Positions 32,044 to 55,745 are shown, numbered from the stretch's first letter. The stretch: DNA of 64,000 nt from Candidatus Magasanikbacteria bacterium RIFOXYD1_FULL_40_23 (GCA_001783215.1 MFRA01000001.1:157449-221448); one strand, 5' to 3'. Notes: a model not told the origin generated them from the sequence alone. Numbers and translations: made by a program.

Positions 32044-32118
32044 CGCTCGAAAAAGTAAATAAATTTACTCTTTCTCACTCATTTCGCAAATAAAAAATTA
32101 TTTATTCGGGTAATCGGG
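32044..32118 (+). repeat. orphan copy of the ACTCATTYCG leader-element family
   Basis: actaaggtattTACTCATTCGCTCGaaaaagtaaataaatttactctttctCACTCATTTCGcaaataaaaaa. It matches the elements abutting the start codons at 44045 and 53731. Confidence 0.4.
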
Positions 32119-32235
32119 TGGATGTTTTGCGAGGCAGATAAATCTGCCCATTTTTTTTCACTAATTTTTTAGTGAAGACAAACGGACAGACAATGCCAGA
32201 AAGAATTCGTTAGAACTCTTAAATTTTTTTTACCA

Positions 32236-32345
32236 TTTTCTACTCGCCTTCGTCTTTTACTTCGGCGTAGCGAAGAGTGATACAAAAGATTTAAGAGAGG
32301 AAGAGTGCTGTTGGTATTTATCCAACAAAGCTTTTTCTTCCTACC
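32236..32345 (-). terminator. island 3' module A (duplicate of 37002..37110): two-hairpin terminator-like element
   Basis: About 75% identical to module B over about 110 nt. Contains the hairpins CTTCGgcgtagCGAAG and GAGGAAGagtgctgttggtatttatccaacaaagctttttCTTCCT. Confidence 0.5.
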
Positions 32346-32374
32346 TCAGCGTTTGCCAAGGATTTGGGGTGGTG

Positions 32375-33166
32375 TTAGGGCGGGGGCGGAATCACCTCAA
32401 TGTAGATGGATGCTTGATGGGTGGTGTTACCCATTCCATCGAAGCAGGTGAAGGTGTGCATGGCACTAGAGAGCGGCGCGAACTGCGGTCTGGAACCCGC
32501 CACTTCGTACGCCCCGCTTGAGAGCCCGCCTTGAACCGACGGTTGGCTCATGCCACCACAGCTAGTGGAGACGGTGTTGTCACCATCCCAGACGAGCGGC
32601 ACTTGCTGCCCTCTGGGGATTGAGTAATTACCGTCGGAGACAACTGTCGCATTGGTTACCGACATGCGCATCGCTCGGACTGCCACCGACTTCGGCTCTG
32701 ACACTGCTCCGGACTGGTCGAAACAAATCAGGGTATAGGTAGTCGTCCTGAAGAGCGGAACAACGTCCACCAAACCATTCGCAGCTTGAGAGCCGGAAAA
32801 GTCTGTGGCGCCGTTGTTCGCGGTAGCAGCGCAAACAACAACGGAGGCGTTGGTCGTCCAGGTCAACGAGACGGTTTCGCCTACGCGAACTTTGTCGTCA
32901 CTGACCGTGAACTCGACAATGTTCGGCGGTTCTGCCGCAGCGTCGATGATAGTCATACCACCATCGGTGCCAGCGTCATCATCCATAGGCATTGCATCCA
33001 TCTCAGCATCATCGTCAGCAGCTTCGCCACTCGGGTCGAATGCACAGGCAACGATAATGAGTGCTGACGCGACAATACCAGAAATAAACACTGCAGTGCG
33101 ATGCATGACATGCTCCCCCGACCAAAAAGGCCGTAAAATGGTTTTAACTACGTGGCAACTTGCCAC
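32375..33166 (-). CDS. lipoprotein with Ig-like domain (same domain family as 33415..35664); probable true start at 33106
   Basis: GGGGGAG RBS before the ATG at 33106 (MHRTAVFISGIVASALIIVAC, lipobox IVAC). The domain block is ...VSLTWTTNASVVVC...TYTLIC.... High GC. Confidence 0.6.
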   Translation of the reverse strand: MASCHVVKTILRPFWSGEHVMHRTAVFISGIVASALIIVACAFDPSGEAADDDAEMDAMPMDDDAGTDGGMTIIDAAAEPPNIVEFTVSDDKVRVGETVSLTWTTNASVVVCAATANNGATDFSGSQAANGLVDVVPLFRTTTYTLICFDQSGAVSEPKSVAVRAMRMSVTNATVVSDGNYSIPRGQQVPLVWDGDNTVSTSCGGMSQPSVQGGLSSGAYEVAGSRPQFAPLSSAMHTFTCFDGMGNTTHQASIYIEVIPPPP

Positions 33167-33287
33167 CCTAAATTTAACAAAGAATTTCTCTATTAAATTT
33201 TAGGTGGCAAATATATTTTTCAAAGAAATTTTTTTATAATTCGATCTGTATCATCTTCCTAAAAATTATTTAAGAAGATAATTAGAT

Positions 33288-33317
33288 CGTGTGAGCTTGT
33301 TGGTACAAGCTCACACG
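33288..33317 (-). terminator. hairpin H1 downstream of island gene 2 (covaries with H2)
   Basis: CGTGTGAGCTTGttggtaCAAGCTCACACG, preceded by the shared motif tcttcctaaaaattatttaagaagata. Confidence 0.45.
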
Positions 33318-33414
33318 TGGCTGACTGTCGCTTGTCCGATTTGCTTGCGCATTTCAGGCTTGCGAACTTCCGACTGTTGTCATGAGTGTCGGAGAACTCT
33401 CCTGATTCCTGCCG

Positions 33415-35664
33415 CTACAGGTTCGTGTTGGGCGGACCCGTCAACACCGTGACCGGCGTTGCGCACTGCAGATCCCAGGTGATCCCACTCGGCGGATTCG
33501 CATCCGTCGCGTGGCCTGGCAGCAGCGAACACCCAGTGGTGTATCGACGCGCACTGTCCTGAACTGCCCCTGGCGTCCAGATGCTCGATCCGCCCACAGG
33601 CATGACCGTGAGGAACGACGCGTAGTGGCAGGTGATGGCACAGACGCCATCGGGACCTGAGACCTTGTTGCCGACGAGGGTCAGAACCTGCGGAACTCCC
33701 GTTGCCGACCAGCCCTTGCAAACATCTATGCTTGGCAGATCGGAGTTCTTGTAGAACGCCTCCATTCCGTGACACATCGTGTTGGCGGGCGGAGCGGTCA
33801 CGCTGATGTTGACGAACTTGGTGATGGTGCCACCAGCGACACGGGTGCAGGTAAGCGTGTAGGTGTGCGTCGCGATCATCGTGGGGTTCACGATGATGTT
33901 GCCGTCCACCGGACGATCACCAGTCCAGGCGTTGCTTGCGGTACAAGCGTCGGCGTGGGTGCTATCCCACTCGAGCTTGTAACCACCACCCAATTGCACG
34001 GCCACAGGCGTGGCAGTGAGAGTCAGCGCCAGATCGGGCAGTTGCGGAGCCGTTACGGTCACGTCGGCCGTCGCGTTCACGCTACCACCAGGGCCGGTGC
34101 AGGAAAGCTGGTACTTGGCATCGCTGGTGGGGCTAACCACCAAGGTGCCATTTACCGGCTTCGATCCACTCCAGCTACCCGTGGCCGTACAACTCGTCGC
34201 GTTGGCCGTGCTCCAGCTCAGCGTGCTGCTCTGCCCCATGGTGATGGTGGCAGGCGTTGCGCTGAACGAGAGCGTTGGAAGCGGATGTTGAACCACGGTC
34301 ACAGTCGCCGTGCGAGTGATCTGCTGTCCACCTGGACCGTTGCAGGTCGCGGTGTAGGTCTTCGTTGCGTTCGGGCTGACCGTCATCGTTCCGCTGGTCG
34401 GCTTTGACACCGACTCGATCGTACAGCTAGTCGTGTTCGTACTCGCCCAGCTCAGGCAGCTGCTATCACCGGCGTCGATCGTCGATGGGGAAGCAGAGAA
34501 ATTGAGCGTGAGCAAGGGGTTGACGGTCACAAGCGCGCCGCGAGTGATCGACCCTCCAGGACCTTCGCAGGTCAAGGAGTAGGTCGTCGTCGAGGTCGGC
34601 ATGAGATTCGTCCACGAACCGCTCAAGGGTTGTGTCACCCAGTTGCCGCTGCTGTTGAGGCTACGGCAACTCGTCGCGTTCGCGCTCGTCCAGGTCACGG
34701 TCGTCGTCCCGCCCACATTGATAGTGGCTGGGCTGGCCGTGACGGTCAGAGTCGGAAGCGGCGGAGGCGGTGCGGCGTTGACGACCACAGTAACCGAATC
34801 GGTGACCACATCGTATGAACTGTTGTAGCAGGTCAAGGAGTAGGTCGTCGTCGTGGTCGGCATGAGTCCCGGCCACGATCCATCGATCGGCTGGGGTACC
34901 CAGTAGCCGCTAGCGTTCAGGCTCAAACAGTTCGTAGCGTTCTCGCTGTTCCAGCTCACTGTGGTGCTCTGCCCCACAGTGATGCTGGTCGACGTCGCGG
35001 TGACGTCGAGGGTCGGCAGTGGCGGTTGGATCACGGTCACGGTGACCGATCCATTGTAGCCATGGCCATCCAGACCAGTGCAAACCACCGTGTAGGCGGT
35101 CGTCTGGATCGGAGAGACCACGAAGGTGCCGTTGGGCATCTGCGACCACGTCTCGCTGTTGGTACAGCTCGACATGTTCGTGCTCGTCCAAACCACTGTG
35201 GCGCTCTGCCCCCTGCTGATTGTCATCGGAGTCGCCGTGACTTCGAGAGTCGGATCCGGCGGCGGAGGCGGCTGGATCACCGTCACATCGACGTGATCCA
35301 TGATGCCGACGCCGTTAAGACCGGTACACACCACCGTGTAGGTGGTGTCCACGGTCGGCGAGACCGTGTAGGTACCGTTGACCGGCTGGGACATGCCCAT
35401 GCTGGTGCAGTTGGCCGTGTTGGTAGACAGCCAGTTGATCGTTGCGCTCCCACCGAGGTTGATCTCCATCGGCGTGGCAGTCACGACCAAGGTCGGAGCA
35501 CCGGGCGGTGCATCCGGCGGCGGTGCGTCGGGCGGGGGCGTCGAAGCATCCTCTCCCATCGCATCCACCTCCGGCACGCTGCCGTCGGCTCCCAGGCCTT
35601 GTCCATCCACGACACATGCGGTGACCGAAGCCACCAGGAACAGCAAACTGATTGCCTTACGCAT
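33415..35664 (-). CDS. lipoprotein with about 7 tandem Ig-like domains (about 85 aa each, conserved Cys pair)
   Basis: GGAAGGAG RBS and lipobox VTAC. Repeats follow the pattern PTLxVTATPxxIxxGQSxTVxWxSxNATSC....TYTLTC. High GC. Confidence 0.65.
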   Translation of the reverse strand: MRKAISLLFLVASVTACVVDGQGLGADGSVPEVDAMGEDASTPPPDAPPPDAPPGAPTLVVTATPMEINLGGSATINWLSTNTANCTSMGMSQPVNGTYTVSPTVDTTYTVVCTGLNGVGIMDHVDVTVIQPPPPPDPTLEVTATPMTISRGQSATVVWTSTNMSSCTNSETWSQMPNGTFVVSPIQTTAYTVVCTGLDGHGYNGSVTVTVIQPPLPTLDVTATSTSITVGQSTTVSWNSENATNCLSLNASGYWVPQPIDGSWPGLMPTTTTTYSLTCYNSSYDVVTDSVTVVVNAAPPPPLPTLTVTASPATINVGGTTTVTWTSANATSCRSLNSSGNWVTQPLSGSWTNLMPTSTTTYSLTCEGPGGSITRGALVTVNPLLTLNFSASPSTIDAGDSSCLSWASTNTTSCTIESVSKPTSGTMTVSPNATKTYTATCNGPGGQQITRTATVTVVQHPLPTLSFSATPATITMGQSSTLSWSTANATSCTATGSWSGSKPVNGTLVVSPTSDAKYQLSCTGPGGSVNATADVTVTAPQLPDLALTLTATPVAVQLGGGYKLEWDSTHADACTASNAWTGDRPVDGNIIVNPTMIATHTYTLTCTRVAGGTITKFVNISVTAPPANTMCHGMEAFYKNSDLPSIDVCKGWSATGVPQVLTLVGNKVSGPDGVCAITCHYASFLTVMPVGGSSIWTPGAVQDSARRYTTGCSLLPGHATDANPPSGITWDLQCATPVTVLTGPPNTNL

Positions 35665-35687
35665 GAGAATCTCCTTCCGTAACGGTT

Positions 35688-35796
35688 GAGTGAGGCCGAA
35701 ATGGCCACTTGATGGCCACCATGGCCGAGAAACTACTCGGAGCTTACTACTTGTTGCCTCCGAATTAAATAAATATATTTTTTATATTTACTAAAT
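35688..35796 (-). promoter_or_regulatory. island 5' leader module L1 (near-identical to L2 at 36846..36963)
   Basis: About 110 nt and about 92% identical to L2. Contains two TGGCCAT direct repeats about one helical turn apart, a CTCGGAG/CTCCGA hairpin and an AT-rich promoter-like tract. Runs into the GGAAGGAG RBS and ATG of gene 2. Confidence 0.6.
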
Positions 35797-35903
35797 TCGA
35801 AGGCAACTTTTTGATTTTAATTTACTTTGGTTTTTTGAAAAGAACGCTTTTGTTTTTTAAGCTTCTCATCCTCCTAAATTTAATTAAGAAGATAAGATAC
35901 TAT

Positions 35904-35940
35904 CGCGACGTGTTCTCTGTATGAGAGAGAACACGTCGCG
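35904..35940 (-). terminator. hairpin H2 downstream of island gene 3 (covaries with H1)
   Basis: CGCGACGTGTTCTCTgtatgagAGAGAACACGTCGCG. It sits in the same position and after the same aagaagata motif as H1 but has a different stem sequence. Confidence 0.45.
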
Positions 35941-35987
35941 AACGCCTGCCTACACTTCCGATCGCTCGGTTGCGTAGATTGCGCTTG

Positions 35988-36812
35988 TCAGAACCAGCCG
36001 GTCCTGATGCCCAAACGGACACCCAGACCGAATCCGGTCCACCTGCCGACGTACATCGGCTCGGTGCTTACGGCTCCGACCACATCGGCGAACATGCCGA
36101 AGTGTTCCCAGTTGCCGGCCAACCGCAAGCCTGCATCCACGGCACGGAGCTGAACCAGCTCCTCTCCGGGATCGTCGACGTTGGAACAGAAGCTGAGGTT
36201 GACGGTGGGGCCGAGACCGAAGTGATCGCTGCGCTTGTTCAAGAGCGCCGCACCGGCCGTGGCCGCCACCTCGCTCTTGCCACAACCACCAACGCCAACG
36301 TTGGCGCTCCACTCCCAGGAACGGGTGTTGAGCGTCCCGACGAAGCCGGCGGTGAGCATCTCTTCGACGCTCTCGTCGTACCCGTCGCGATCATCGCGAG
36401 GTTGGAGCAGGACGAACCCACTGCCGAACAGGCCACCGCCAAAGCGGTACCTGCTCGTCTCCACCACCGTCACCGGGAACGGATCGAGCGTGACCGCCGG
36501 CGAAACCGCCGGTGCCTCCTCGTCCTTGCCGTTGTAGGTGTGGTTGATCACCTCGACGCACGCCGTGTCGATGTTCTTGACCGTGTGGATGACACCGGTG
36601 ACGGCGTCGACTTGGATCTCGGTGCGCGGCTTGCCCTCGGCACAGTCATCGTCGACCGGGACGACGCTGGTCTCCACCACCACATCGGCGGGAGGATCTT
36701 CGTTGCTCTGGGCTGCGACTTCCTGCGCCATCATGCCGATGAGGCAGATGCTGGCAAGGGTCAACAGACCATTCTTCTTCCACTGCATGTGCGAAACCTT
36801 CTTGACGAACAT
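35988..36812 (-). CDS. secreted protein with beta-barrel OMP-like C-terminus (ends ...GIRTGWF)
   Basis: GAAGGAG RBS before the ATG at 36812 (MFVKKVSHMQWKKNGLLTLASICLIGMMAQEVAAQ signal peptide). C-terminal alternating hydrophobics ending in Phe. High GC. The track began it at 36833. Confidence 0.55.
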   Translation of the reverse strand: MFVKKVSHMQWKKNGLLTLASICLIGMMAQEVAAQSNEDPPADVVVETSVVPVDDDCAEGKPRTEIQVDAVTGVIHTVKNIDTACVEVINHTYNGKDEEAPAVSPAVTLDPFPVTVVETSRYRFGGGLFGSGFVLLQPRDDRDGYDESVEEMLTAGFVGTLNTRSWEWSANVGVGGCGKSEVAATAGAALLNKRSDHFGLGPTVNLSFCSNVDDPGEELVQLRAVDAGLRLAGNWEHFGMFADVVGAVSTEPMYVGRWTGFGLGVRLGIRTGWF

Positions 36813-36845
36813 GGCGAGTTCTCCTTCTTCCAAAAACTGGTTGCG

Positions 36846-36963
36846 TGAGGCCGAAGTGGCCAGTAACGATGGCCACCATGGCCGAGAAACTTCTCGGAGC
36901 TTACTACTTGTTGCCTCCGAATTAAATAAATATATTTTTTATACTTACTAAATTCGAAGGCAA
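36846..36963 (-). promoter_or_regulatory. island 5' leader module L2 (duplicate of L1)
   Basis: See L1. Differs mainly by a 2-nt indel in the spacer between the TGGCCA hexamers. Confidence 0.6.
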
Positions 36964-37001
36964 TGTTTTTTGTTTTGTAAAGAACTTTTCCAATTTTTTC
37001 T

Positions 37002-37110
37002 TTTCACCACTCGCCTTTGCTTTTTGCTTCGGCGTAGCGAAGTGATGAGCAGAAAATTTGGGAGGAAGGGAGTGGTTGGTATTTCTCCAACAAGACTTCC
37101 CTTCCTCTTT
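37002..37110 (-). terminator. island 3' module B (duplicate of module A)
   Basis: ttttcaccactcgcctttgctttttgCTTCGgcgtagCGAAGtg...GAGGAAGGGAGtggttggtatttctccaacaagaCTTCCCTTCCTC, downstream of 37138..38025. Confidence 0.5.
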
Positions 37111-37137
37111 GACGACTGCCTCGAACTACTCGAGGCG

Positions 37138-38025
37138 CTACTTGCGCGTCACCTTGGCCGGCCGCGGGGTCTTCGGCGGCGGACCAGGGTGATTGACGGT
37201 CTTAATCCTGACCGTCACGGGCTTGACCGTTTCTTCTGCGGGCATCCCGGGCAGATCGCTTACCTTGATCCGATCCATCTTCTTGATCTGCTCAACATCG
37301 AGCTTGATGGAGTCGATGTCCTTCCGGACGTCGACCATCTGCTTGTTCAGCTTGCCGATGGCGGTCCACTGACCGCGCTGTCCCTTCTCGAATTTCTCGA
37401 GCTTCTCCACCCGCTCCTCGATCGTGGGCGGATCCACTTCCTCTTCCTGCGCAGCAGCACGCTCCGCACAGGGATCGTCGGCGGGAGCAGCTTCCTCCTC
37501 GGTCTCCTCCTCTTCGGTAGGCGTCACCACAGCCTGAGGCTGAGGCACTTCCTCCACCGCCGCGGGCGCGGGAGCCGGGGCGGCGACCGGCGGCGGAGCG
37601 TTCTCCGTCGGGGCAGCAGCACCGGAACCCTTGCCCACGTTGGTGACCTTGGTGCTGGCGGACTTGGACGAGTCCGAGCCACCGGACTTGAGCAGCATGA
37701 CGACGACGCCGAGAGCGACCAGGATCGCGATGGTGATCGCGAAGACGGTCCACGACTTCTTGTCGTCGGGCGGCGACGGGTCCGGCTGCTGGTACTGCAT
37801 GGTCTGCGGCGGCAGATTGATCTGCGCCGTGGGCGCCGCCGACTGCTGATACTGCGGCGGGAGCGTCGGGGGCGGGAGCGTCGGCTGGGGCGGGCTGCTG
37901 GGCAGCGGACGCTGCGGGGCCGGCGGCATGCCGGGGAGCGGGCGCTGCGGACTGATGGTCCCAGCAACAGGGGCTTGTGACCGAACAGTGGGCGAACCAT
38001 ACGGGGGCGTGGTCTTCTGCGGCAT
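37138..38025 (-). CDS. Pro-rich, single-pass membrane-anchored coiled-coil protein
   Basis: AAGGAG RBS. N-terminal PxxP-rich region, TM helix WTVFAITIAILVALGVVVMLL, Ala/Pro/Glu-rich linker, then C-terminal coiled-coil (EERVEKLEKFEK...). Two alternative high-GC frames were rejected. Confidence 0.6.
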   Translation of the reverse strand: MPQKTTPPYGSPTVRSQAPVAGTISPQRPLPGMPPAPQRPLPSSPPQPTLPPPTLPPQYQQSAAPTAQINLPPQTMQYQQPDPSPPDDKKSWTVFAITIAILVALGVVVMLLKSGGSDSSKSASTKVTNVGKGSGAAAPTENAPPPVAAPAPAPAAVEEVPQPQAVVTPTEEEETEEEAAPADDPCAERAAAQEEEVDPPTIEERVEKLEKFEKGQRGQWTAIGKLNKQMVDVRKDIDSIKLDVEQIKKMDRIKVSDLPGMPAEETVKPVTVRIKTVNHPGPPPKTPRPAKVTRK

Positions 38026-38191
38026 GGCGGTCTCCTTCTGTGTCTACCGAATCGTTGACTCGTGAGTTTCTTTCCCGCCTGATCAAATTGATCTTGCGAG
38101 AATCCACGAGTTGAAATACGTTGCTGCTAACTAATTCAAGGTACTACTTTTTTCTTTTGAACGACCACCTTTTTATCAGTGATAGTTCCAA

Positions 38192-41400: not shown

Positions 41401-44045
41401 TAAAGAACCGTTTCATCCAATTTATTGTGCTGAGACATTTCTTTCTTAGCTTTATCAATATTCGTACGGATAACTTCCATTCTCCATTTAAAACTTTCCA
41501 TAACTTCCGGATTACCACTATTTTGTATAATTTTTTCTAAGGTACCAAAATCACGCTCATACATTTGTAAAAGCATTTTCTGTTCTGGAGATGGAAGGTT
41601 TTCTTCCCCAGATATTCGAGCTGTCGTAGGCGTCTCTAATGTATTTTTATCTGTTTCTGGAAAAGGTAAATCTACAGATGTCGGTTGAGATTTTTTATTG
41701 ATTTCAGCCAACCTACCATAAAATTTATTTTTTACTTCTTTTAACTCTTCTGGTAAGGTCAACTTACCAAAGGCTCTCATCAGTTTATCCAATTTTTCTT
41801 CGTATACATCTTCATTGTCCAAATTATTTTTTGCCTCTGCTATAGCATCCTTTACAGCTTGCAAGTCAGCAGTAAACTTAACACGTAAATTTTTATCCTG
41901 CTCATCCATTACCATCTCAAACAAAGACAAATCATCTTCTGTCTTCTTTATTCTATTTTCATATTCCTCTCTTTCCTGCTTTGTTCCAGAAGTTTCTTTT
42001 CCATTTAATCTAAGCTGATGCTCTTTTTTTACATTATTAGGAAGGGAATTCCACAACTCATTAATTAATACTTTTGCTTCCTTTAAATGAAGCTCGTGCG
42101 CCACACTGTCTTTTTCTACCAAACTTGCCTTCGCCTTATTTAAAAGCTGTATTGCAGCATCTACTAATAAAGATGTACGAGTTTCATAAAAATTATAACT
42201 TTTGTCTTTGCTATGAAAACGCTGTCGCATTATACGTTCAACCATCTTTATTCTCCTTATCTCTTCAAGGATAAGATCTACCCCTGAATCTTTGTCTTCT
42301 ACCTTGTCTTTAATTTCTTTTATAGAAGTCGTATCTTTTTTAACCATCTCTTCTCTTCTCAAAGAAGGTGTCTTGTCGGCAAGCTGGCTTTCGTACTCTA
42401 ATTTTACTTCTGATGGGACTTTGGTCAAAAGTTCAGTAAAGGCACTTTCGGCTCTATCTATTTCTCTGCTATGTACTCGAGGATTTCTGGCATGGTAAGT
42501 AAGGTCCAAGCTTTCCTCAATTTCTTCAACTAAAGACCTAATATTATCTGCTTGATCATCGGTCAAAATTTCTTCGGCAATATTTTTAAACAAAGCAAAC
42601 TTATCGTTCATTTCTTGATATCTTTTTTGTCTATATTCTGGAGCATCTTTATCAACAACCGCATCACCCACTACGACACTTGATTCTTTTTCGTCTTTTT
42701 CAACAACTGGTACCACTTTTTTCTTTTCACCTTTACCCAAAGAAGCTTTCTGGAGATTAAATTCTTTTCTTACCGCTTCTGAAACATTCAAAAAAACTTT
42801 GGTAAAATTGTGTTCAAATACTCTAAGCTGCTCTCTATATTCATCCCAATCATCGGTAGCTTCTATTTTTTCCAAAGCACTTTCAATTTTCTCTTCGTTT
42901 TCTTTGGTTTCTGCTCTTTCTTCTTTGGTCATTTTTTCCATAGCAAGAGACCTAAGCAACTCCCATCGCTCATCCGCATATTGCAATGTTTTATCCCTAT
43001 CTTCTTGCCAGTCTTTTTCCACAACTGGTTCTGCTTCTTTTTCTTTAGTCTTAACCTCTTCCTTTTCCCAGAATGGAGGGTTACCATTTAACTGACTAAA
43101 ATATTCCAACCTTGCTTTTGTTGGAATAGTGCGAATGATTAAATCAAAATTACGTTCAAACGCCGACATGGCGTTTTCGTATTCTTCTGCGTCATTAGAT
43201 TCAAGCGCTGTTTTTAAACCACCATTAATCGCATCCGTGGTTTCTTCGCTAACCGAACCTTCTCTCAACATTTTACCTATTATTTCCTGGAGAATATCCC
43301 ATCTTTTAACAGCATCCTGGTGTCTTTCTACTCTCTGCTCTTGCCCATTCTCAACAGCACCAGCTTTTCTTTTAGAGGCCTTCTTGGTTTTGTGCTCTGG
43401 CTTTTCTTTTTCGTCTTCTTCAGGCTCCGGCTGTAATTGTTCTGGAACCGCAATTTCTTTAGAATCAGTCTCAGCCTTATTTTCTCCTTTTTTTATATCC
43501 AAGAGAGCCAAGGTCTCTGTTTCTATTTCTAATTTTTTAGCCTCATAGCCTGCTGGGTCTTTAATCTCTAACAGTTCGGTAATTTCTCCCTTTATTTTTT
43601 TATATTTTCCAAAATTTTTAAACAAAACATTATCGCTCGCACTAGACTGTCCAACCAAATGCAACCTAGCTTCTTCGAGGTCTGCAAACAATTTAGCCTG
43701 CTCTATTTCTCTATCTTTTTTACCTTTATACTCTTTGAAGCTAAACGGCTTAGCTTCTGCCGATTTTCTTTTGGAATTTTTTGCTCCTTGAAACTCCAGC
43801 CCCAGGCTAGCAATTTCTAAATGAATTTTATTTTTAAATTCTTTTTTATTATCTGCACCATCATAAGAATCTAATTTTTCAGAAATCTTTCTTAAAGCCA
43901 AAATAAGATGGTCTTTTTTATCTTGAGGTATATCGGCCGAATTAATTTCGGCCTCTAACGAAGCCAGCCTAGTAGCTGTATCTTTTTGAAATGTGCTTTC
44001 ATTTTTATCTGGGGACGATCCCCTCTCCGGACCTCTTTTTGCCAT
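38451..44045 (-). CDS. giant K/E-rich surface/membrane protein (1864 aa), hypothetical
   Basis: The first about 900 aa are highly charged coiled-coil. A central region has hydrophobic helices (GLAIGKASYDTVTTLFGVKIITDIVYGGLTG, LNLGLTVTGISLLRGAVYLAASAF). The C-terminal region is globular. Start set at ATG 44045 (MAKRGPERG), which directly abuts the conserved leader. The track TTG at 44066 is less likely. Confidence 0.7.
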   Translation of the reverse strand: MAKRGPERGSSPDKNESTFQKDTATRLASLEAEINSADIPQDKKDHLILALRKISEKLDSYDGADNKKEFKNKIHLEIASLGLEFQGAKNSKRKSAEAKPFSFKEYKGKKDREIEQAKLFADLEEARLHLVGQSSASDNVLFKNFGKYKKIKGEITELLEIKDPAGYEAKKLEIETETLALLDIKKGENKAETDSKEIAVPEQLQPEPEEDEKEKPEHKTKKASKRKAGAVENGQEQRVERHQDAVKRWDILQEIIGKMLREGSVSEETTDAINGGLKTALESNDAEEYENAMSAFERNFDLIIRTIPTKARLEYFSQLNGNPPFWEKEEVKTKEKEAEPVVEKDWQEDRDKTLQYADERWELLRSLAMEKMTKEERAETKENEEKIESALEKIEATDDWDEYREQLRVFEHNFTKVFLNVSEAVRKEFNLQKASLGKGEKKKVVPVVEKDEKESSVVVGDAVVDKDAPEYRQKRYQEMNDKFALFKNIAEEILTDDQADNIRSLVEEIEESLDLTYHARNPRVHSREIDRAESAFTELLTKVPSEVKLEYESQLADKTPSLRREEMVKKDTTSIKEIKDKVEDKDSGVDLILEEIRRIKMVERIMRQRFHSKDKSYNFYETRTSLLVDAAIQLLNKAKASLVEKDSVAHELHLKEAKVLINELWNSLPNNVKKEHQLRLNGKETSGTKQEREEYENRIKKTEDDLSLFEMVMDEQDKNLRVKFTADLQAVKDAIAEAKNNLDNEDVYEEKLDKLMRAFGKLTLPEELKEVKNKFYGRLAEINKKSQPTSVDLPFPETDKNTLETPTTARISGEENLPSPEQKMLLQMYERDFGTLEKIIQNSGNPEVMESFKWRMEVIRTNIDKAKKEMSQHNKLDETVLYNMQAFAEDLQKHYPKLHAEFIQKISPQVPAAPAPEKKGVWGWVKEKASGLKKAVISKEFGLAIGKASYDTVTTLFGVKIITDIVYGGLTGRGDFAEWRKGSKESKTAVESIFAAHQDLLVASEKNKKGEALSENERIEKRIEYLKEKIGSANIKEEAKKQILERLWAISIKHKTETTKSRNDRDSEVRELLESYIHGKVSGVKIAKDALNLGLTVTGISLLRGAVYLAASAFEKIKQVKKEEIKDIAGSLKDKKDAKTFTKDIISSTAKETARALTFRGAKEGSSGVARAMDFVKALGTIARGVGIFNITVLHGGSPKESIDNLIQAIKEKDASIISDSFVQNAKRVWETPGNIGHLAESAWDKVTGHESIAPEIALPSSVAELPKEDIVAPVNTVSVEPVPEAIAPETALFSVQDFAAEHKLSEESLVPLQKLVEQYPSLKEESLSRILEASKVGDGVKFHHADLVRGDVDTLIEAEGERRSVIFEELVKAKDYEGAAKYLESQDFSSRHKSYLAEYIGKGTHEDYLKFVEQYDEKPDKKMVYGLFRAMQGKGNTDLANAGFFRAATEDRTGRTVSLQGGELKYFGLDEKGEPILSGQGRVVLKETVMVKITTSPTTIEEAPYEGDFKNAPAVELPEGDRAVLAEIEADKAKFAKMGEEAINISDRARAGEPVGTYVINAAKEKAGNLNGTSINDGMSVDDKLWANANIINDIQGPEVVGEETTTEKTLVGKTIKTFKASGEVVQAAPGAKQVEIKTSLENTAKSTSEIKPVSPTVEESAKQQAEKSEAIAGEPAELTEKSVESFKVMYQNFESMKANIALQKTEFIMVGDGQDILKKQIENEPSMASFKEYAKKVFAGDVSNLDEKVVESVRTMKDTLDAFNHIDKNPDWYKNLEGEELKLFLDPNKDGVKMLANDSHIARITDREGKEFLISDLDNTFVVKDGVLLKMDDGKIVQKYSYEEAVNLANDMLKNEPGAPIE

Positions 44046-44066
44046 ATACGATATGAGTGAGTGCAA

Positions 44067-44125
44067 AAGTTAAATGTATTTAACTTTACACGAGCGAATG
44101 AGTATATATGCGGCTTTAGCCCATA
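44067..44125 (-). promoter_or_regulatory. ACTCATTYCG leader element abutting the giant-gene start
   Basis: Minus strand: atatatGGGCTaaAGCCgcatataTACTCATTCGCTCGtgtaaagttaaatacatttaacttttgcaCTCACTCATATCGTAT-ATG. Confidence 0.45.
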
Positions 44126-44146
44126 TATTTTTTAAATGAATGGCCA

Positions 44147-46229: not shown

Positions 46230-46345
46230 ACATTTTGATTTCTAATTACTAATTTCTAAATTCTATTTTCGGACAAAGTGAGGGAAATGAAAATTTATTA
46301 TCATTTCCGAACGTGTCCAGAAAATACCTTAGTATTTTCTAATTT

Positions 46346-49298: not shown

Positions 49299-49319
49299 AA
49301 CAATTGTTCTTTGCGCTAA

Positions 49320-49352: not shown

Positions 49353-49366
49353 CCTAACAATAAAAT

Positions 49367-49825: not shown

Positions 49826-49826
49826 A

Positions 49827-50220
49827 GGGGGTGCCGGGCTTCGATAGAGGCTGCTGGCTACGCTGGCATACCGAGGAAGCTCTGATCCTCGTAAATCACA
49901 AAGAGCAACATAATAAGTGCAAACTTGTTATCAAAAGCTAAAGTTGCTGTAGCAAATTTATTTGCTGTCAGAGCTTTCGCTCCGGTAATGGCTTAATAGC
50001 CTGTTACCCATCGCGCCGATAATACTCAGTAATCGAACCGCGGTGTCATTAACTGAGAGTAGCTAATATGGAGCGCCGACTGTATATTAGTGAAGTTACC
50101 CGGCTCGTCAATCCAATTTTCGTCCTCTTTTATCGGGTTGATTAAATAACAAGAGACACTAAGTATGTAGAAGGTTTAGTCAAAGTTATCTACACGCGAG
50201 TTCAACTCTCGCCACCTCCA
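49827..50220 (+). ncRNA. ssrA: tmRNA (ssrA), 394 nt
   Basis: Begins GGGGGUGCCGGGCUUCGA 1 nt after the smpB stop. GCAUACCGAGG...CCUCGUAAA and the tag ORF with GCAAAC resume codon and UAAUAG double stop parallel E. coli tmRNA. T-arm GCGAGuucaacuCUCGC. Acceptor GGGGGUG/CACCUCC with discriminator A. Confidence 0.75.
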
Positions 50221-50303
50221 CTGTGTCGCGCCGAAGCTTTAGCGGAGGCGGACAACAAAATTAAACAGTCGCCTTCGCCTTTTAGGGCTTCGGCGTACCA
50301 AGT

Positions 50304-50849: not shown

Positions 50850-50906
50850 AAGATTGTCTTCCTTAGCAGAAGCTGTCTCTAAAAAAATAATTTTTATTAG
50901 AATACT

Positions 50907-51101: not shown

Positions 51102-51171
51102 CATAACTCAAGATACACGCATCACTATTCACTATGAATCATGCTGTGTGCATCATGTATCATGAAATGAT

Positions 51172-51519
51172 ATGACAAGAATTAAAGGTGGTTTACTCCA
51201 CGCAAAACGCAGACGAGGAATTTTAAAACATACCAAAGGTTTCCGCTGGGGCAGAAAATCCAAAATCAAGTTGGCAAAACCTGCCAAAATGAAAGCTGGC
51301 CAATATGCCTTCAATGATCGCAAGATTAAAAAGCGCACAAACCGCGGAGTATGGAATATCAAAATCAATGCTGCTGTACGAGAATTCGGTTTAAGCTACA
51401 GTCGCTTGATAGACGCAATGAAAAAAAGCAATGTTGCTATCGATAGAAAAATCTTGGCAACACTTGCCGAACACCACAAAGCTGTTTTTGCCAAAGTAGT
51501 TGAAGCTGTAAAGAAGTAG
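51172..51519 (+). CDS. rplT: 50S ribosomal protein L20
   Basis: MTRIKGGLLHAKRRRGILKHTKGFRWGRKSK... Confidence 0.9.
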   Translation: MTRIKGGLLHAKRRRGILKHTKGFRWGRKSKIKLAKPAKMKAGQYAFNDRKIKKRTNRGVWNIKINAAVREFGLSYSRLIDAMKKSNVAIDRKILATLAEHHKAVFAKVVEAVKK

Positions 51520-51598
51520 TCCACAAGCACAATCTTGACAAAAACTGCAAAATTAGTAATATATACTCAAAATTAAAACTCCTTAAGGCCCCGACAAT

Positions 51599-51670
51599 GC
51601 GTGGTATAAGGAGGAAACGTACCCTCCTTCGTTTCCTCTCCTCTTACCACGCACTGTCTGGGTCTTTTTG
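51599..51670 (+). terminator. long stem-loop terminator after rplT
   Basis: GCGTGGTAtaAGGAGGAAACGtaccctcctt CGTTTCCTCtCCTctTACCACGC, then ...ggtctttttg. Confidence 0.5.
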
Positions 51671-51746
51671 ATTTAATGATGGCGGATATACAAATAAACA
51701 ACCGCCCAACACATAGTGCTAAGCGGCCAATAATCTTCCCCTTTAA

Positions 51747-53099
51747 TTATTCCTGTTCGGAATGCCAGCGGTGTACCGCCCTTGCCCAAGCTTTTTCAAA
51801 CTGAGGCGTAATATTTTGCGGATTTTCTACCCAGTACAACTGGAACCGATGGTAGTTTACTCTTTTCTTAAACGATTCTTCAAGCACCGCGCTTTGCACA
51901 GGGAATCCCAGACTATACGGCACAGCCTTGCCATATCTATCCAATACATTGTATTTGTCTGTTTTGGATTTACTGATCTGAAAATCTCCTGGGTCGACTA
52001 CCAAAGTAAAACAACCTTTGGCACGCAGTTCGTTTTCACACTCCAAGAGATCTTTCTTGAAATCAAACTCTCTTCGCATAGGCCAGCCACCCAACAAATC
52101 TAGGTTAAACACAGCGTCGCTTGGCCAACCAAAAACATCTTCAACTATGTTCCAAAGCCAAGCATCATCCTGCTTTAGCAAACCTTTCAGATCTACCATT
52201 CCCTCCTCTACCAAATACGGGTAAACTACTTTGTGCATCAATAGCTCCAAGAATTTCGTGGCTGGGGTGTTATACACTCCACCCCACAACAAAGCTCTCA
52301 GCCAAAGAAAGTTTTCCAGGACTTCCGGCTTAAGAACAACAACTTTGTCATCCACTAAATGAGTATAATGCCAAATATCCCATGGATTATCATTGGCAAA
52401 ACTCAAGATTTTACCAAAATTTTCAACTCCATGCCGATTGGCAATCCTGGAGATTTCTGCCAAATCACCCAACATATAACTGGCTGTATCGGCTATCTCT
52501 TGGATTTGCCCACGCAAACCATTGCCCCACACAATTGATTGCACTTCTTTTAGTGTGACGTGAGCATTTAGGCCATGACGCTTACAGAGTTTTCTCCATT
52601 CCTTCCCATTTAGCTGTAACATTTTCTGCATAAACCCATCGTCTTCATCACACATGCTCAACTGTCCAGCCATAGCTTTTTGCTGATTGGCAGACTTCCA
52701 CGAATCTCCACCCGAAAGTAACCACATATCGTGCAAAAGAGCAGCAAGTTGCCCAACAACCAACTCTCGCTCACCCACCCTAACTTTGGCGCCAATCAGC
52801 TGAAATATAGCTGCCGCTAGAAGTGAGTGATTCCAACGAGTATGGCAAAAAGTATGCGGCCCCACAAAAGGATTTGCCGTTTCTCCAATCAAAGCCCAGC
52901 TAATAAGTTGGAGCTGGTTTCTTCCTTTCAAGCTTCTATCCAAGCCTAGCAAATGAATAGCATCTGATAGCAGGCCCGAACTAAAGGAGAAAGATACGCT
53001 CCTATCGAGAGGCAAGACACCCTTTTGAGATACAGACTCACCTGAGAGCAGCGCAATGCCGCTCTCAAGGCCTTTTTTGTCCCTGGTCTTGATTGACAT
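51747..53099 (-). CDS. HD-domain phosphohydrolase (dNTP triphosphohydrolase-like)
   Basis: HD motif pair ...CHTRWNHSLLAAAI... and ...LAALLHDMW.... Confidence 0.55.
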   Translation of the reverse strand: MSIKTRDKKGLESGIALLSGESVSQKGVLPLDRSVSFSFSSGLLSDAIHLLGLDRSLKGRNQLQLISWALIGETANPFVGPHTFCHTRWNHSLLAAAIFQLIGAKVRVGERELVVGQLAALLHDMWLLSGGDSWKSANQQKAMAGQLSMCDEDDGFMQKMLQLNGKEWRKLCKRHGLNAHVTLKEVQSIVWGNGLRGQIQEIADTASYMLGDLAEISRIANRHGVENFGKILSFANDNPWDIWHYTHLVDDKVVVLKPEVLENFLWLRALLWGGVYNTPATKFLELLMHKVVYPYLVEEGMVDLKGLLKQDDAWLWNIVEDVFGWPSDAVFNLDLLGGWPMRREFDFKKDLLECENELRAKGCFTLVVDPGDFQISKSKTDKYNVLDRYGKAVPYSLGFPVQSAVLEESFKKRVNYHRFQLYWVENPQNITPQFEKAWARAVHRWHSEQE

Positions 53100-53171
53100 T
53101 TCGCATTACTCCTCTGGTTGTGAGTTGTAAAACAACAAAAATTGACTAACTATATTATAGCCAATTACAAA

Positions 53172-53201
53172 ACAAAAATCCCACCCTTTGTAAAGGTGGG
53201 A
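53172..53201 (-). terminator. intrinsic terminator of 53222..53731
   Basis: Minus strand: CCCACCtttacaaagGGTGGGattttt. Confidence 0.55.
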
Positions 53202-53221
53202 CCATTGTATTGAAGTTTTTA

Positions 53222-53731
53222 TTACGGAGTTGTGCTAGCAGAAGGGGTGGTGGTAGGGGTAGGAGTAGAAGTTGGACTTGGGGTGGTAGTTGGGGCTGGT
53301 GGAACTACCAATAATTTCCTAGCTTCTTTTAGAGCTGCTTGGTAAGCTCTGTTGGCTGCCAATATAGCGGCTCTATGTTCGGCTTGAGCTTTTTTAACAG
53401 CTGCCTGATAGGCTGCGTTTCTGGCTCTGCGTTCCGCGTCTTTTCTTTTTAATTCTGCTTTTCGCGCTTCAACTTTTGCTTTTCGTTCTGCAAGCAATTT
53501 TTCCTGTTGTTCTTTTTTTGCTTCTCTAGTATTTTTTACTTCTTCCTGCTTTTTTTCCATTTCTATCTTTTGAGCTGTGCGTAAGTTTTTCATCTCTTCT
53601 ACTTTTTTTTCATAAGCCTCTCTGGCATTGATGCTGGTTGTCATAGCATCAGTTTCTTCTGCGCTGACCAAAGAAGGAACAACGGAGAACATGACTGCCG
53701 CCATCAAAAAAATTGATAGAAACTTCTTCAT
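53222..53731 (-). CDS. secreted K/E/A-rich coiled-coil protein with Thr/Pro-rich C-terminal tail
   Basis: Signal peptide MKKFLSIFLMAAVMFSVVPSLVSA. C-terminal tail PPAPTTTPSPTSTPTPTTTPSASTTP. The start codon abuts a leader element. Confidence 0.55.
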   Translation of the reverse strand: MKKFLSIFLMAAVMFSVVPSLVSAEETDAMTTSINAREAYEKKVEEMKNLRTAQKIEMEKKQEEVKNTREAKKEQQEKLLAERKAKVEARKAELKRKDAERRARNAAYQAAVKKAQAEHRAAILAANRAYQAALKEARKLLVVPPAPTTTPSPTSTPTPTTTPSASTTP

Positions 53732-53805
53732 ATACGAAATGAGTGAGAGAAATAATCAAATGTTGTTGATTATTTCCGAGCGAATGAGTATATATGGGCT
53801 TTAGC
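53732..53805 (-). promoter_or_regulatory. ACTCATTYCG leader element abutting the start of 53222..53731
   Basis: Minus strand: cCACTCATTTCattaTATGGGCTaaAGCCCATATAtACTCATTCGCTCGgaaataatcaacaacatttgattatttctCTCACTCATTTCGTAT-ATG. The palindrome is perfect. Confidence 0.45.
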
Positions 53806-54020
53806 CCATATAATGAAATGAGTGGGCGTAGTAATTAAATACGCTTATCATTATATTAAATAAATAAATTTATATTTAAATTTTAACATACCAGCTAGCA
53901 TTTCGCAACTACCTAAATTTTGTAGTAGCTACGAAATACAGACGAAGCTTACGATAGCGGGTGGAGATCTTTTTTTCACCACCTTCTGACTGGCTTCGTC
54001 AATGTTTATCTCCTTTTCAT

Positions 54021-54239
54021 TCATCGGCGCGGGCCACGCATACGCCCAAGCACTGTTACCCTTAGAATCTTATACCACTCACCTACCGGTGGACCGTCTC
54101 GCAAAGCGATATCGCACAAACACTCCCGCTCGAGCTCTTCTAGAAGTTCGGAACTTTCCAATGTCGCTGCAAAAGCCTTAAGGTTGGTTGGATTATTTCT
54201 GTTAGAATCCACAAAGTGACGCTGACCTGTTGAAAGCAT
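54021..54239 (-). CDS. hypothetical small protein
   Basis: AGGAGGA RBS 5 nt before the ATG. 72-aa ORF. Confidence 0.45.
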   Translation of the reverse strand: MLSTGQRHFVDSNRNNPTNLKAFAATLESSELLEELERECLCDIALRDGPPVGEWYKILRVTVLGRMRGPRR

Positions 54240-54435
54240 GGCTGTCCTCCTAATAAAAGTATAGCACTTAAATAAAAAAATTGACAGTGCTTAGGTTATA
54301 TAATAGACTAAAAATATAATTCGATGCGAATATAAGCAATTATTTAATTATAATTATTTACATACGCGTTGAATTCTAAAAAACAAAACGTGTAGGCTTG
54401 ACCCTGCCAAAATGGGTACAGAAGGGTGTCGCGCC

Positions 54436-54756
54436 ATGAATCCCCTAACCCGAGAAGTTAACCCTCCAAGGTGGAGACTTAACCTTGCTAGCGCCTCGCT
54501 CTTCCATAGAGCCAAACCCTTTGCAAATGTTGCTCTGTACGTACTGCTGGTCTCTGGACTGGCCTGCAGCTTCCTCGCCCTTTTTCACCATATGACTACC
54601 AGGCCCGTGCCGACTTTTTTTCACGGCATGAACCATGCATTCATCATCTACCCACAGAACCAGTACGCACTTCTTCCATCCACGATACGCCTACAAGCAG
54701 GCTACGCATCGCACAACAAACGACTGAGAACTACAATCTTCTCAGACAATCATTAA
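54436..54756 (+). CDS. possible small membrane protein (alternatively a structured non-coding transcript)
   Basis: GAAGGGTG RBS-like tract before the ATG at 54436 (MNPLTREV...) and one TM segment. A strong terminator immediately follows. Coding status is uncertain. Confidence 0.25.
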   Translation: MNPLTREVNPPRWRLNLASASLFHRAKPFANVALYVLLVSGLACSFLALFHHMTTRPVPTFFHGMNHAFIIYPQNQYALLPSTIRLQAGYASHNKRLRTTIFSDNH

Positions 54757-54781
54757 AGGCCATTCAATGGCCGTTTTTTTT
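54755..54781 (+). terminator. intrinsic terminator
   Basis: aaaGGCCATTcAATGGCCgtttttttt. Confidence 0.6.
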
Positions 54782-54943
54782 ACTCACGCTCTCGGTATCA
54801 CCGAGGGCAATTTTTTTAATATATGGGCTTTGCATAAAAAATATTAGCTACACTATATTTTCTCATTCATTCAGAAATAGCCAGGCTCAATATTTATATC
54901 TTGCAAGCAGTCTATAAACATCTCACTGTCTATTTCACTCACT

Positions 54944-55030
54944 CATTTCGAAAATACTAAGGTATTTTTCATACACGCTCGTAAATGAAAATAAATTTTC
55001 ACTTATCTCACTTTGCATAAAAAATAAAAA
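54944..55030 (+). repeat. degenerate copy of the leader-element family
   Basis: CACTCACTCATTTCGaaaatACTAAGGTATTTttcatacacgctcgtaaatgaaaataaattttcacttatctcactttgcataaaaaa. Confidence 0.4.
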
Positions 55031-55137
55031 AGCCACCAACCAATCATACTTCCATCTAGTGAAAATATGGTTGGTATGGTGGTGGCTTTTTTGCAAACAC
55101 CCCATCATACACAGATCGTAAACAGATGTTGCGACGG

Positions 55138-55518
55138 CTACTTAACCGGCGCAGACCAAGTATGCACCCACTTGAATCGTTCCAGCAATTGCTTGCGGTC
55201 CATCTCCCAAATGTCCTTCGGGATAGAGACGCCCATCATCCGAACCAGGTCCGTGATCAACAGAATCAAACCGTACTCGATCTTAGACCAATCATCCCTG
55301 GGTTGCGGCTTCTCAAGGTGAGTAATGAGCTCTGCCAAGGCTTCCACAGGCTTACGTCGCAACTTTTCAGCAGCAATGGAAGCCGTCACACTGTCTGCGA
55401 TAGATGGCCCCTGACACAACCGAAGCTCGCGAATGAACATATTTGCATGCGTCTTCACAAGCACAGCAATCGGAACTTTCATTCTCGTAAACAGGCTAGC
55501 ACTGTCTGTTGTGTACAT
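55138..55518 (-). CDS. putative all-alpha NTP pyrophosphohydrolase (MazG-like) protein
   Basis: ...EALAELITHLEK...EYGLILLITDLVRMMG resembles the EExxE...D...L(I/V)YLLRLA blocks of MazG-like enzymes. GGAGAA RBS before the ATG at 55518. The track TTG is at 55545. Confidence 0.3.
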   Translation of the reverse strand: MYTTDSASLFTRMKVPIAVLVKTHANMFIRELRLCQGPSIADSVTASIAAEKLRRKPVEALAELITHLEKPQPRDDWSKIEYGLILLITDLVRMMGVSIPKDIWEMDRKQLLERFKWVHTWSAPVK

Positions 55519-55668
55519 GATGTTCTCCAATTCTATAACCTGCAATGACCATACTATAAAAATACAAAAAAGTCAATGCTGGACAAAAAAACACCGTTAT
55601 TTATGCGGTATTTTTATTGGCGGAGAGTAAGGGGCGAAGTGGAAACTTGAGCTAATATTAATTATTAA

Positions 55669-55745
55669 AAATACCAAGGTATTTTCTTCACACGTTCAGA
55701 AATTAAAATAAATTTTATTTCATTCACTTTGCTTGAAAATAAAAG
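55669..55745 (+). repeat. degenerate copy of the leader-element family
   Basis: ACCAAGGTATTTtcttcacacgttcagaaattaaaataaattttatttcattcactttgcttgaaaataaaagcc. Confidence 0.4.

Follow-up and report, generated by a model that had tools for sequence, protein, structure and literature searches.

A repeated two-hairpin element in the intergenic regions of a Candidatus Magasanikbacteria genome

The locus and the copies of the element

The subject of this analysis is a stretch of 64,000 nucleotides (nt) from Candidatus Magasanikbacteria bacterium RIFOXYD1_FULL_40_23 (GCA_001783215.1, MFRA01000001.1:157449-221448), here called the window, and a short repeated element that lies between its genes. The source genome belongs to the candidate phyla radiation (CPR) and is seen in many metagenomes, including the 393-kb contig ERZ4902915 NODE_5. 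The window carries the genes for SmpB, a 265-amino acid (aa) protein, a 354-aa protein, Wzz, a 96-aa protein and a giant surface protein of 1864 aa, as well as a 169-aa secreted coiled-coil protein with a signal peptide.

An initial annotation had described five leaders of about 75 nt in this region, built on an ACTCATTYCG decamer. Each of these leaders is a copy of an intergenic element, 70-100 nt long, that is repeated and has two hairpins. All five exist close to where they had been placed, but the total is at least nine, i.e. four copies had been missed. The further copies (F, G, H and I) first surfaced in a repeat search and with an nhmmer profile. The nine copies listed below come from a covariance model that was run unfiltered on the window, and the nhmmer profile also finds nine. 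All are intergenic, five on the plus and four on the minus strand.

Copy C: 53729..53826, minus strand, 93.8 bits with the covariance model, B/C subtype
Copy B: 44043..44143, minus strand, 77.4 bits, B/C subtype
Copy A: 32019..32095, plus strand, 55.4 bits, B/C subtype in part
Copy F: 46261..46342, minus strand, 33.1 bits, D subtype, new
Copy I: 2640..2726, plus strand, 26.7 bits, B/C subtype in part, new
Copy G: 21361..21441, minus strand, 24.5 bits, intermediate type, new
Copy E: 55666..55745, plus strand, 23.7 bits, D subtype
Copy H: 54815..54949, plus strand, 23.5 bits, degenerate, B/C-like, new
Copy D: 54950..55025, plus strand, 22.3 bits, D subtype

The 14-mer TACTCATTCGCTCG has exactly three exact matches in the window, in A, B and C; with up to three mismatches there are 12 matches against 3.45 expected. 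The motif CACTCATT is found 7 times where 1.8 matches are expected, a number reached in none of 100 shuffles. The exact decamer occurs only thrice (A, C and H), and the register of box 1 differs (ACTCATTCGC). The motif that is really common to the copies is (C)ACTCATT.

Anatomy of the element and its subtypes

The unit consists, in this order, of hairpin 1 (X-loop-X'), box 1, hairpin 2, box 2 and another copy of X, the complement of X'. Box 1 is C/T-rich and has the form ..CATTCGCTCG; in the second (D) subtype ..ACACGCTCG stands in its place. Box 2 is also C/T-rich, reads TCTCACTCATTTCG in copy C and has the general form TCTCAC followed by TCATTTCG or by TT. The 3' X pairs with X' to give the helix P2, and in copies B and C this 3' X contains the ATG. 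This long-range helix, formed by the bases just 3' of hairpin 1 and the bases at or around the ATG, had been overlooked in the initial annotation. The segment that had been taken for about 45 nt of AT-rich sequence is AT-rich, but it is really a second hairpin, whose sequence differs from copy to copy and which always pairs in a MAFFT alignment. Likewise, the perfect palindrome holds in C only, B carrying an extra G. The parts of the individual copies are as follows.

C, box 0: 53824-53815, minus strand, CACTCATTTC
C, hairpin 1: 53812-53791, minus strand, TATATGGGCTAAAGCCCATATA
C, box 1: 53790-53777, minus strand, TACTCATTCGCTCG
C, hairpin 2: 53776-53749, minus strand
C, box 2: 53748-53735, minus strand, TCTCACTCATTTCG
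C, helix P2: minus strand, CATATATAC at 53796-53788 with GTATATG at 53735-53729
Weak partial unit directly 5' of C: 53809..53858, minus strand, hairpin GCGTATTTAATTACTACGC followed by box 0; marginal, 13.4 bits, E-value 0.77
B, box 0-like: 44143-44134, minus strand, CCATTCATTT
B, hairpin 1: 44127-44105, minus strand, with one extra G
B, box 1: 44104-44091, minus strand
B, hairpin 2: 44087-44066, minus strand
B, box 2: 44063-44049, minus strand
B, 3' strand of helix P2: 44049-44043, minus strand, GTATATG
A: plus strand, hairpin 1 of the AAGTAC..GTATTT kind; box 1 TACTCATTCGCTCG at 32036-32049; hairpin 2 AGTAAATaaATTTACT; box 2 CTCACTCATTTCG at 32074-32086
F: minus strand, AAAATACtaagGTATTTT, CTGGACACGTTCGG, hairpin 2, CCTCACTTTGTCCGAAAATAG
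I: plus strand, hairpin 1 ATATAGAGGCttcGCCaCATATAT and box 1 TATCATTCGTTCG; a GC-rich terminator hairpin replaces hairpin 2 or doubles as it

In the window the B/C subtype comprises B, C and, in part, A, H and I. Its hairpin 1 is TATATGGGC..GCCCATATA and its 3' X is G(A/T)(A/T)TATG, the ATG included. The D subtype (D, E and F) has the layout AAAATAC-TAAG-GTATTTT .. CACGCTCGG .. CTCACTTTG, with AAAATAC-TAAG-GTATTTT as hairpin 1 and with an inner long-range helix (CATACA/TGTATG and variants) that is followed by GAAAATAAA. It lacks the ACTCATT motif but has the same architecture. The description of D and E as progressively degenerate copies did not survive the comparison: together with F they form a distinct subtype that is sharply conserved in other genomes. 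Copy G is intermediate, its hairpin 1 being of the D type and its boxes of the CTCATTCG type.

As a side observation, hairpin 1 of both C (53810-53802) and B (44125-44117) contains a two-codon mini-ORF (open reading frame), ATG GGC TAA, which repeats the start-codon context of the gene downstream.

Occurrence in other genomes

Copies beyond the five, on whose existence the idea of a family depended, are present not only in the window but also in many other genomes. A metagenome scan for the D-type pattern gave 17 loci, mostly from groundwater, with real copies in 15. A scan of one genome per species, in which the pattern demanded only box 1, the foot of hairpin 2 and box 2, gave 66 loci. The CPR loci among them belong to Magasanikbacteria, Moranbacteria, Parcubacteria, Nomurabacteria and several metagenome-assembled genomes (MAGs) labelled 'uncultured Gammaproteobacteria', while about 40 are Prevotellaceae/Bacteroidaceae MAGs from the rumen. 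A Phocaeicola plasmid also carries a copy. Between CPR and Bacteroidales the sequence of the loops is conserved, and that of the stems varies.

We note that the 'uncultured Gammaproteobacteria' MAGs (third-party (TPA) assemblies; our loci L097 and several of L032-L088) appear to be CPR and that their labels look wrong: L097 keeps the Magasanikbacteria gene order, and the copies of L073 and L083 are identical to those on a Hainich groundwater contig (L019).

Three scans of viral contigs and a BLAST search of phage records gave no copy beyond one match (L011), which lies within coding sequence, has no hairpins and was judged a chance match. With Rfam at the gathering score the window contains only tmRNA and tRNA. 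E-value scans of 11 element-bearing loci added only AaHKsRNA20 on L025 (E = 6), far below threshold and attributable to chance. A literature search found no description of the element.

Covariation of the paired segments

The paired segments were evaluated separately for the two CPR subtypes. In 18 B/C-type copies standard pairs fill 93.4% of the cells, as compared to 79.1% in shuffles, and two-sided changes are seen in 38 cells where 9.7 are expected; when the partners are slid as a control, pairing falls to 32-49%. Both P2 and hairpin 2 covary. The compensatory series of P2 includes ATATAC/GTATAT, ATATTC/GAATAT, ATAATC/GATTAT and ATAAAC/GTTTAT, and the start-codon bases A, U and G make up the last three pairs of this helix. 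For 17 D-type copies the corresponding values are 92.8% against 86.7% in shuffles, with 23 two-sided changes against 9.7 expected. Here the inner helix and hairpin 2 covary, whereas hairpin 1 is invariant and so uninformative.

Taken over all types (76 copies), cognate X'/X duplexes have a mean energy of -8.0 kcal/mol as compared to -4.9 for non-cognate pairs (p = 5e-12). X' is able to pair with either copy of X over the common TATATG. The fold energy of copy C corresponds to a z-score of -5.5. The structure of the element is under selection.

Neighbouring genes and start codons

As the initial annotation had it, B and C run straight into ATG codons, those of the 1864-aa gene (44045-44043) and of the 169-aa signal-peptide gene (53731-53729). 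B occupies the gap after the stop codon (44149-44147) of the 96-aa gene. F begins 6 nt past the stop of the 265-aa gene and ends 45 nt ahead of the ATG of the 354-aa gene. The segment between F and this ATG (46230-46262) contains the 7-nt repeats AATTTAG AAATTAG TAATTAG AAATCAA, and one further such unit precedes F.

Copy G is located in the divergent gap between murB (minus strand) and an ATP-grasp gene (plus strand), with a TTGAAT-17-TATTAT promoter match between G and the murB ATG. The candidate starts of the ATP-grasp gene (ATG 21378 or 21410, plus strand) lie inside the reverse complement of the G boxes (CGAATGAG), the one at 21410 in box 1; a reversed copy may thereby provide the opposite strand with a start codon. 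Copy A has no plus-strand gene downstream, and a terminator-like hairpin follows about 45 nt further on. H is directly 5' of D, i.e. the two form an H-D tandem, and D directly adjoins a large hairpin, at about 55030-55092, that has a run of T on each strand. This hairpin was read from the sequence, is without an entry in the terminator scan and looks like a two-way terminator. E is found between the terminator of the gene at 55788-56252 (minus strand) and the promoter of the gene at 55138-55521 (minus strand).

The segment 54281-54780 also deserves mention. Here a strong promoter-like site, TTGACA-17-TAGACT, and a terminator (GGCCATTCAATGGCC followed by T8) bracket about 470 nt, and the H-D tandem comes after the terminator. 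The sole ORF of the segment (114 aa) has no Pfam match, and either a non-coding RNA or a small gene could lie here.

In the collected copies of the B/C type, a co-oriented ORF starting with ATG is found downstream in 19 of 27 cases, and in 15 the ATG stands exactly 11 nt after CTCAC. The corresponding ORF is present in 11 of 25 copies of the D/Moran type, five of which have the ATG exactly 5 nt after CTCAC, and in 18 of 26 copies of the Prevotella type, with the ATG 19-57 nt after CTCAC. Five D-type copies have the ATG and three to four initial codons (MKNK/MKIN/MKIK) within the tail of the element. The ATGs of the B/C type are, to judge from the encoded N-termini, the true starts: the products include an epimerase beginning MKILVTGGAGF, an RfbF-type N-terminus and signal peptides, and the orthologs of the giant protein begin MARSK, MARKT or MAKKS.

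The genes that follow the copies are functionally unrelated. In the window they encode the giant surface protein, the secreted coiled-coil protein, a PDZ-like membrane protein and MurB; elsewhere they include RfbF, a glycosyltransferase, an epimerase, YidD and toxin-antitoxin genes. The copies without a downstream gene had been suggested to mark decayed or relocated genes. The idea of decayed genes is not supported: D, E and many other D/Moran copies adjoin the terminators of convergent genes, and the D subtype has a well-conserved consensus of its own. Nor is there reason to see an unusual initiation context in the missing Shine-Dalgarno (SD) sequence of B and C. An SD-like motif precedes only 9 of the 48 genes of the window, most of these within the slightly GC-richer stretch at 47-59 kb, and its absence is therefore ordinary here.

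The geometry of the gene starts raises the question of whether the element is a portable promoter cassette acting at the DNA level. The 3' arm of hairpin 2 would then be the -35/-33 box and the 3' X the -10/-7 box, at a fixed spacing of 17-20 nt; the conserved boxes would be spacer or upstream promoter sequence, and the copies would spread promoters to new genes. The Prevotella-type copies fit this description. In 27 of 28 listed copies the 3' X reads TAnnTTTG, with TTTG 20 nt upstream in the arm of hairpin 2; 'nn' varies while TA and TTTG are fixed, and the ATG follows 4-42 nt later. These are the -7 (TAnnTTTG) and -33 (TTTG) boxes of the published sigma-ABfr consensus, at the published spacing (PMC7366714), and a consensus of this type was likewise obtained by differential RNA sequencing (dRNA-seq) in Segatella copri (10.1101/2024.04.05.588293). 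The copy of the Phocaeicola plasmid has the same layout before a gene, and in CPR the hexamers GAWAAT or GWWTAT occupy the same place, 7 nt after CTCAC and 17 nt after the arm of hairpin 2.

However, hairpin 1, box 1 and the palindromic counterpart of the -33 arm form no part of the sigma-ABfr consensus. Copies of the CPR B/C subtype contain a single -10-like hexamer, and it overlaps the ATG, which orthologs and N-termini typical of their families confirm as the true start; a transcript starting from this hexamer would miss the start codon. The compensatory changes in hairpin 2 and P2 would be left unexplained, and copies are found between convergent genes too. We regard a promoter cassette as unlikely on the whole, and for the CPR B/C subtype a leader is better supported than a promoter; in Prevotellaceae the family may act as a promoter or carry one. 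A leaderless promoter was also considered for B and C and rejected: no -10 hexamer with A at position 2 is found 6-8 nt before the ATG, and the distance from CTCAC to the ATG differs by subtype (11 vs 5 nt).

Orthologous junctions in relatives

The gene order from SmpB to the giant gene is kept at four loci of relatives (L095-L098), and homologs of the 96-aa protein upstream of B have 58-70% identity in other Magasanikbacteria. The junctions of these loci and of L101 are empty or differently filled. In the relatives the junction between the 96-aa gene and the giant gene is 5-10 nt long (TAA-TATAAAATAT-ATG and similar), as compared to the 101-nt gap with B in the window, and none of L095-L098 has an element there. 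The F site, between the 265-aa and 354-aa genes, measures 31-42 nt without an element in two relatives (L095 and L096) and is filled by an unrelated GC-rich hairpin in one. L098 has a B/C-type copy that abuts the ATG (71.6 bits), where the window has the D-type copy F. Just upstream of this copy (L098, 2035-2130) there is also a long palindromic intergenic element of CGAAATA-like repeats. The upstream region of the C-gene ortholog (55% identity) is plain AT-rich sequence with a TGGTATAAT promoter and without an element. With regard to copy number, 20-kb stretches of two relatives contain 0 and 1 copies as compared to six in the equivalent stretch of the window.

The junctions being empty or differently filled in relatives, the copies are accessory insertions that are gained and lost at single intergenic sites and that have multiplied in this Magasanikbacteria genome. 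The two start-proximal copies, checked for conservation upstream of orthologs, proved absent at the orthologs of both the B gene and the C gene, and from this comparison the copies appear not to be needed for the expression of the genes they precede.

The same comparison bears on the initial proposal that the ACTCATTYCG direct repeats bind a dedicated regulator, e.g. a response regulator, of secreted or giant K/E-rich proteins. The enrichment of CACTCATT and the presence of two or three direct repeats ahead of the genes for two surface proteins would agree with such a role. But the downstream genes are unrelated, and the element is missing at the orthologs of both surface-protein genes. Box spacing shifts with hairpin length, with no fixed helical phasing, and the D subtype keeps the architecture without ACTCATT. 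Among the window and flank ORFs scanned, none adjacent to a copy was recognised as a regulator gene. We therefore no longer hold to this proposal and consider it very improbable.

The element is probably mobile. As in miniature inverted-repeat transposable elements (MITEs), copies are present or absent at orthologous sites; the terminal inverted repeats that MITE copies conserve are not seen, the end repeats (P2) differing with compensatory change. X is repeated on both sides, the upstream X coming with a box 0 that resembles part of a preceding unit, and the comparison of filled and empty sites shows no clean target-site duplication.

Transcription and folding of the copies

The reading that we prefer, and hold with moderate confidence, is that of an accessory repeated two-hairpin element which is part of the mRNA before same-strand genes, where it modulates initiation or stability rather than acting as an operator. 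Copies that precede genes in the same orientation (B, C and F) would be transcribed as a 5' leader or an intercistronic spacer, since B fills what is a 5-10-nt operon junction in relatives and since sigma-70-like promoters are found upstream of hairpin 1. The one that belongs to C is the following.

Putative promoter of C: 53880..53908, minus strand, TTGCGA-17-TAAAAT, sigma-70-like consensus match about 70 nt upstream of hairpin 1

This promoter would place the whole element in the 5' untranslated region. Similar matches upstream of hairpin 1 are present in L029, L052, L056, L065 and L075, and those in relatives read TTGACA-17-TATCAT, TTGCCT-17-TATAAT, TTGTTA-17-TATTAT and TGgTATAAT. The matches are suggestive of a leader, at a frequency that in the AT-rich window is near chance (8 found vs 5.6 expected). 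Neither hairpin of B, C or F was found in the scan for intrinsic terminators, their tails being CTCATT.. and TCTCAC...

In the B/C subtype the 3' X would contribute or abut the start codon. Pairing with X' in a weak 7-bp A-U/G-U helix would hold the AUG, which would be freed when X' refolds into hairpin 1, and both C/U-rich boxes would stay single-stranded on the sense strand. In an SD-poor genome the most likely effect would be a modulation of translation initiation and/or of the stability of the downstream message. As expected of a cis-regulatory leader the structure covaries, while conservation before orthologs or before the genes of one pathway is not seen. Signs of a sense-strand structure are U.G as the commonest pair at one P2 position of the D type (8 of 17 copies) and T.G in the TTTG/CGAA of many Prevotella-type copies. 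The P2 energies are equal on both strands.

Several observations weigh against this reading. The status of leader is deduced from the geometry of copies and genes, and there is no co-oriented gene after five of the nine window copies or after 14 of the 25 D/Moran-type copies elsewhere. The predicted full-length sense folds of B and C form hairpin 1 fully and do not form P2; sequestration of the AUG, which must compete with hairpin 1, may therefore be incomplete or not occur at all. Over the whole element it is the antisense strand that folds better, in 68 of 75 copies, because its purine-rich loops can form G.A-flanked pairs; in the internal loop G.A runs lie opposite G.A. Moreover, the loop of hairpin 1 has the form C-GNA-G on the antisense strand in 20 copies and on the sense strand never, and this loop type is very stable in DNA. 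Hairpin 2 has nearly no G.U pairs on either strand. These three features fit a DNA-level or antisense structure, and in Prevotellaceae the match of the 3' half to promoter boxes argues for a DNA-level role there. The conservation of the boxes across two phyla, finally, is explained neither by a purely selfish nor by a purely structural role.

An alternative is a selfish mobile repeat (REP/REPIN or an IS200-type miniature) whose functional form would be the single-stranded DNA of the purine-rich strand. The hairpins and the X'/X pairing would then serve a mobilising enzyme, and the nearness to gene starts would be a target preference. Besides the folding of the antisense strand, its loops and the nearly pure Watson-Crick hairpin 2, the presence or absence at orthologous sites, the lineage-specific expansion, the occurrence in both orientations and the tandem units (H-D in the window and arrays in Prevotella loci) are what such a repeat would show. 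On the other hand, no transposase or RAYT gene was seen in the window, there is no clean target-site duplication at filled vs empty sites, and, unlike ends to which a transposase binds, the end repeats of the copies vary and covary. For the core to be conserved in two phyla, the whole system would have to have been transferred recently, and viral contigs and phage records gave no matches. We consider this account improbable, somewhat more so than a promoter cassette.

One may also ask whether the element is a conserved cis-regulatory RNA for a universal factor, with ribosomal protein S1, the KH domains of NusA or Rho acting on its C/U-rich loops, which are YCAY-like, or a site where RNase III-type processing would trim the message near the AUG. 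The conservation of loops over varying stems and the fixed distance to the AUG are in favour of it. The processing sites of phage T7 have a similar shape of lower stem, internal loop and upper stem. Both the CPR window and Bacteroidales use SD sites little, as is known for Bacteroidetes (PMC7366714). However, the element is dispensable at orthologous genes, many copies lack a downstream gene, and neither the window nor the 11 loci gave an Rfam family for the element, so we give this possibility very little weight.

Further candidates were rejected on inspection. A small antisense peptide (MSERNN.., reverse strand of C) is interrupted in B, while integron attC sites, invertible promoters, hammerhead and kink-turn motifs, BoxA/BoxC antitermination and IHF sites each fail a defining feature of sequence or spacing.

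Other features of the window

A 6-kb stretch at 32200-38100, adjoining the giant gene, has 51-61% GC in a genome of 37-39% GC and encodes Pro/Thr-rich repeat proteins without a Pfam match. A related species has a similarly GC-rich stretch after the giant gene (L100, 16000-20291), and therefore the stretch of the window is not an assembly chimera. The internal repeats 35684-35812 and 36839-36969 are 92-96% identical. A tmRNA gene with a long predicted tag peptide (ANLLSKAKVAVANLFAVRAFAPVMA) lies directly after smpB (49827-50223), inside the GC-richer 47-59-kb region. There is a second repeat family of 57 nt (57675-57731, 58198-58254 and 58914-58970; 70-84% identity) with a CCTGAT..ATCAGG hairpin, each copy being upstream of a small plus-strand ORF. 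Finally, a perfect 22-nt inverted repeat, AAAATAAAAATACAATAATTTT, is found in an intergenic region (28263-28284 and 28338-28359, with 53 nt between the arms).

Discussion

In kind, the element is closest to the Correia, REP or BOX-type repeats, and this is the best account of it. Correia elements (CREE/NEMIS) of Neisseria are short intergenic repeats, present or absent at orthologous sites and often near gene starts. They are co-transcribed as hairpins and can carry or create promoters and alter the expression of neighbouring genes. The present element shares with them its shortness and intergenic position, the presence or absence at orthologous sites and the nearness to gene starts. Correia elements, however, end in conserved inverted repeats of 26 bp and duplicate a TA target, whereas here the X'/X ends vary and covary and no clean duplication is seen; the two internal hairpins, the conserved single-stranded boxes and the range over two phyla are further differences.

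REP/BIME and REPIN (RAYT) repeats resemble the element in being short intergenic palindromes in both orientations, sometimes in tandem, often by terminators and variable in copy number. But REP/BIME repeats carry a GTAG-like tetranucleotide at the foot of the hairpin, which is absent from our alignments, where the conserved flanks are CATTCGCTCG and TCTCAC, and REPs are rarely fused to start codons. No RAYT (Y1 transposase) gene was recognised among the ORFs scanned, which cover the 64-kb window and 20-kb flanks only. BOX, RUP and ERIC repeats likewise consist of modular boxes and hairpins, form stable structures when transcribed and lie close to genes. The element differs from them in sequence, to which it has no similarity, in the precise distance to the ATG (11 nt after CTCAC in 15 copies) and in its occurrence in two phyla.

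A broader conjecture is that two distant SD-poor lineages, Patescibacteria and Bacteroidales, have in common one uncatalogued gene-start cassette, which would be a promoter in Bacteroidales and a start-codon leader in CPR and would spread by pairing of X' at the insertion site. Its conserved C/U-rich boxes and its hairpin 2 would be recognised by universal machinery, e.g. RNA polymerase, the ribosome/S1 or NusA. We think this rather improbable.

What lifts the element above a routine repeat is that it is conserved between CPR and Bacteroidales and that, in Prevotellaceae, it coincides with promoter boxes. Models of the family are easily built, and its addition to catalogues of RNAs and repeats would prevent mis-annotation. 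Even if it is only a selfish repeat, it is a useful marker, in that it shows that compact CPR genomes tolerate insertions of about 100 nt in operon junctions of 5-10 nt and right against start codons, and it accounts for several 'orphan' hairpins in CPR genomes. If, on the other hand, a conserved factor reads the boxes, the family would be a new and widespread module of gene expression in bacteria with no reliance on Shine-Dalgarno sites, and the -33 signal described for Prevotella promoters might in part reflect the element.

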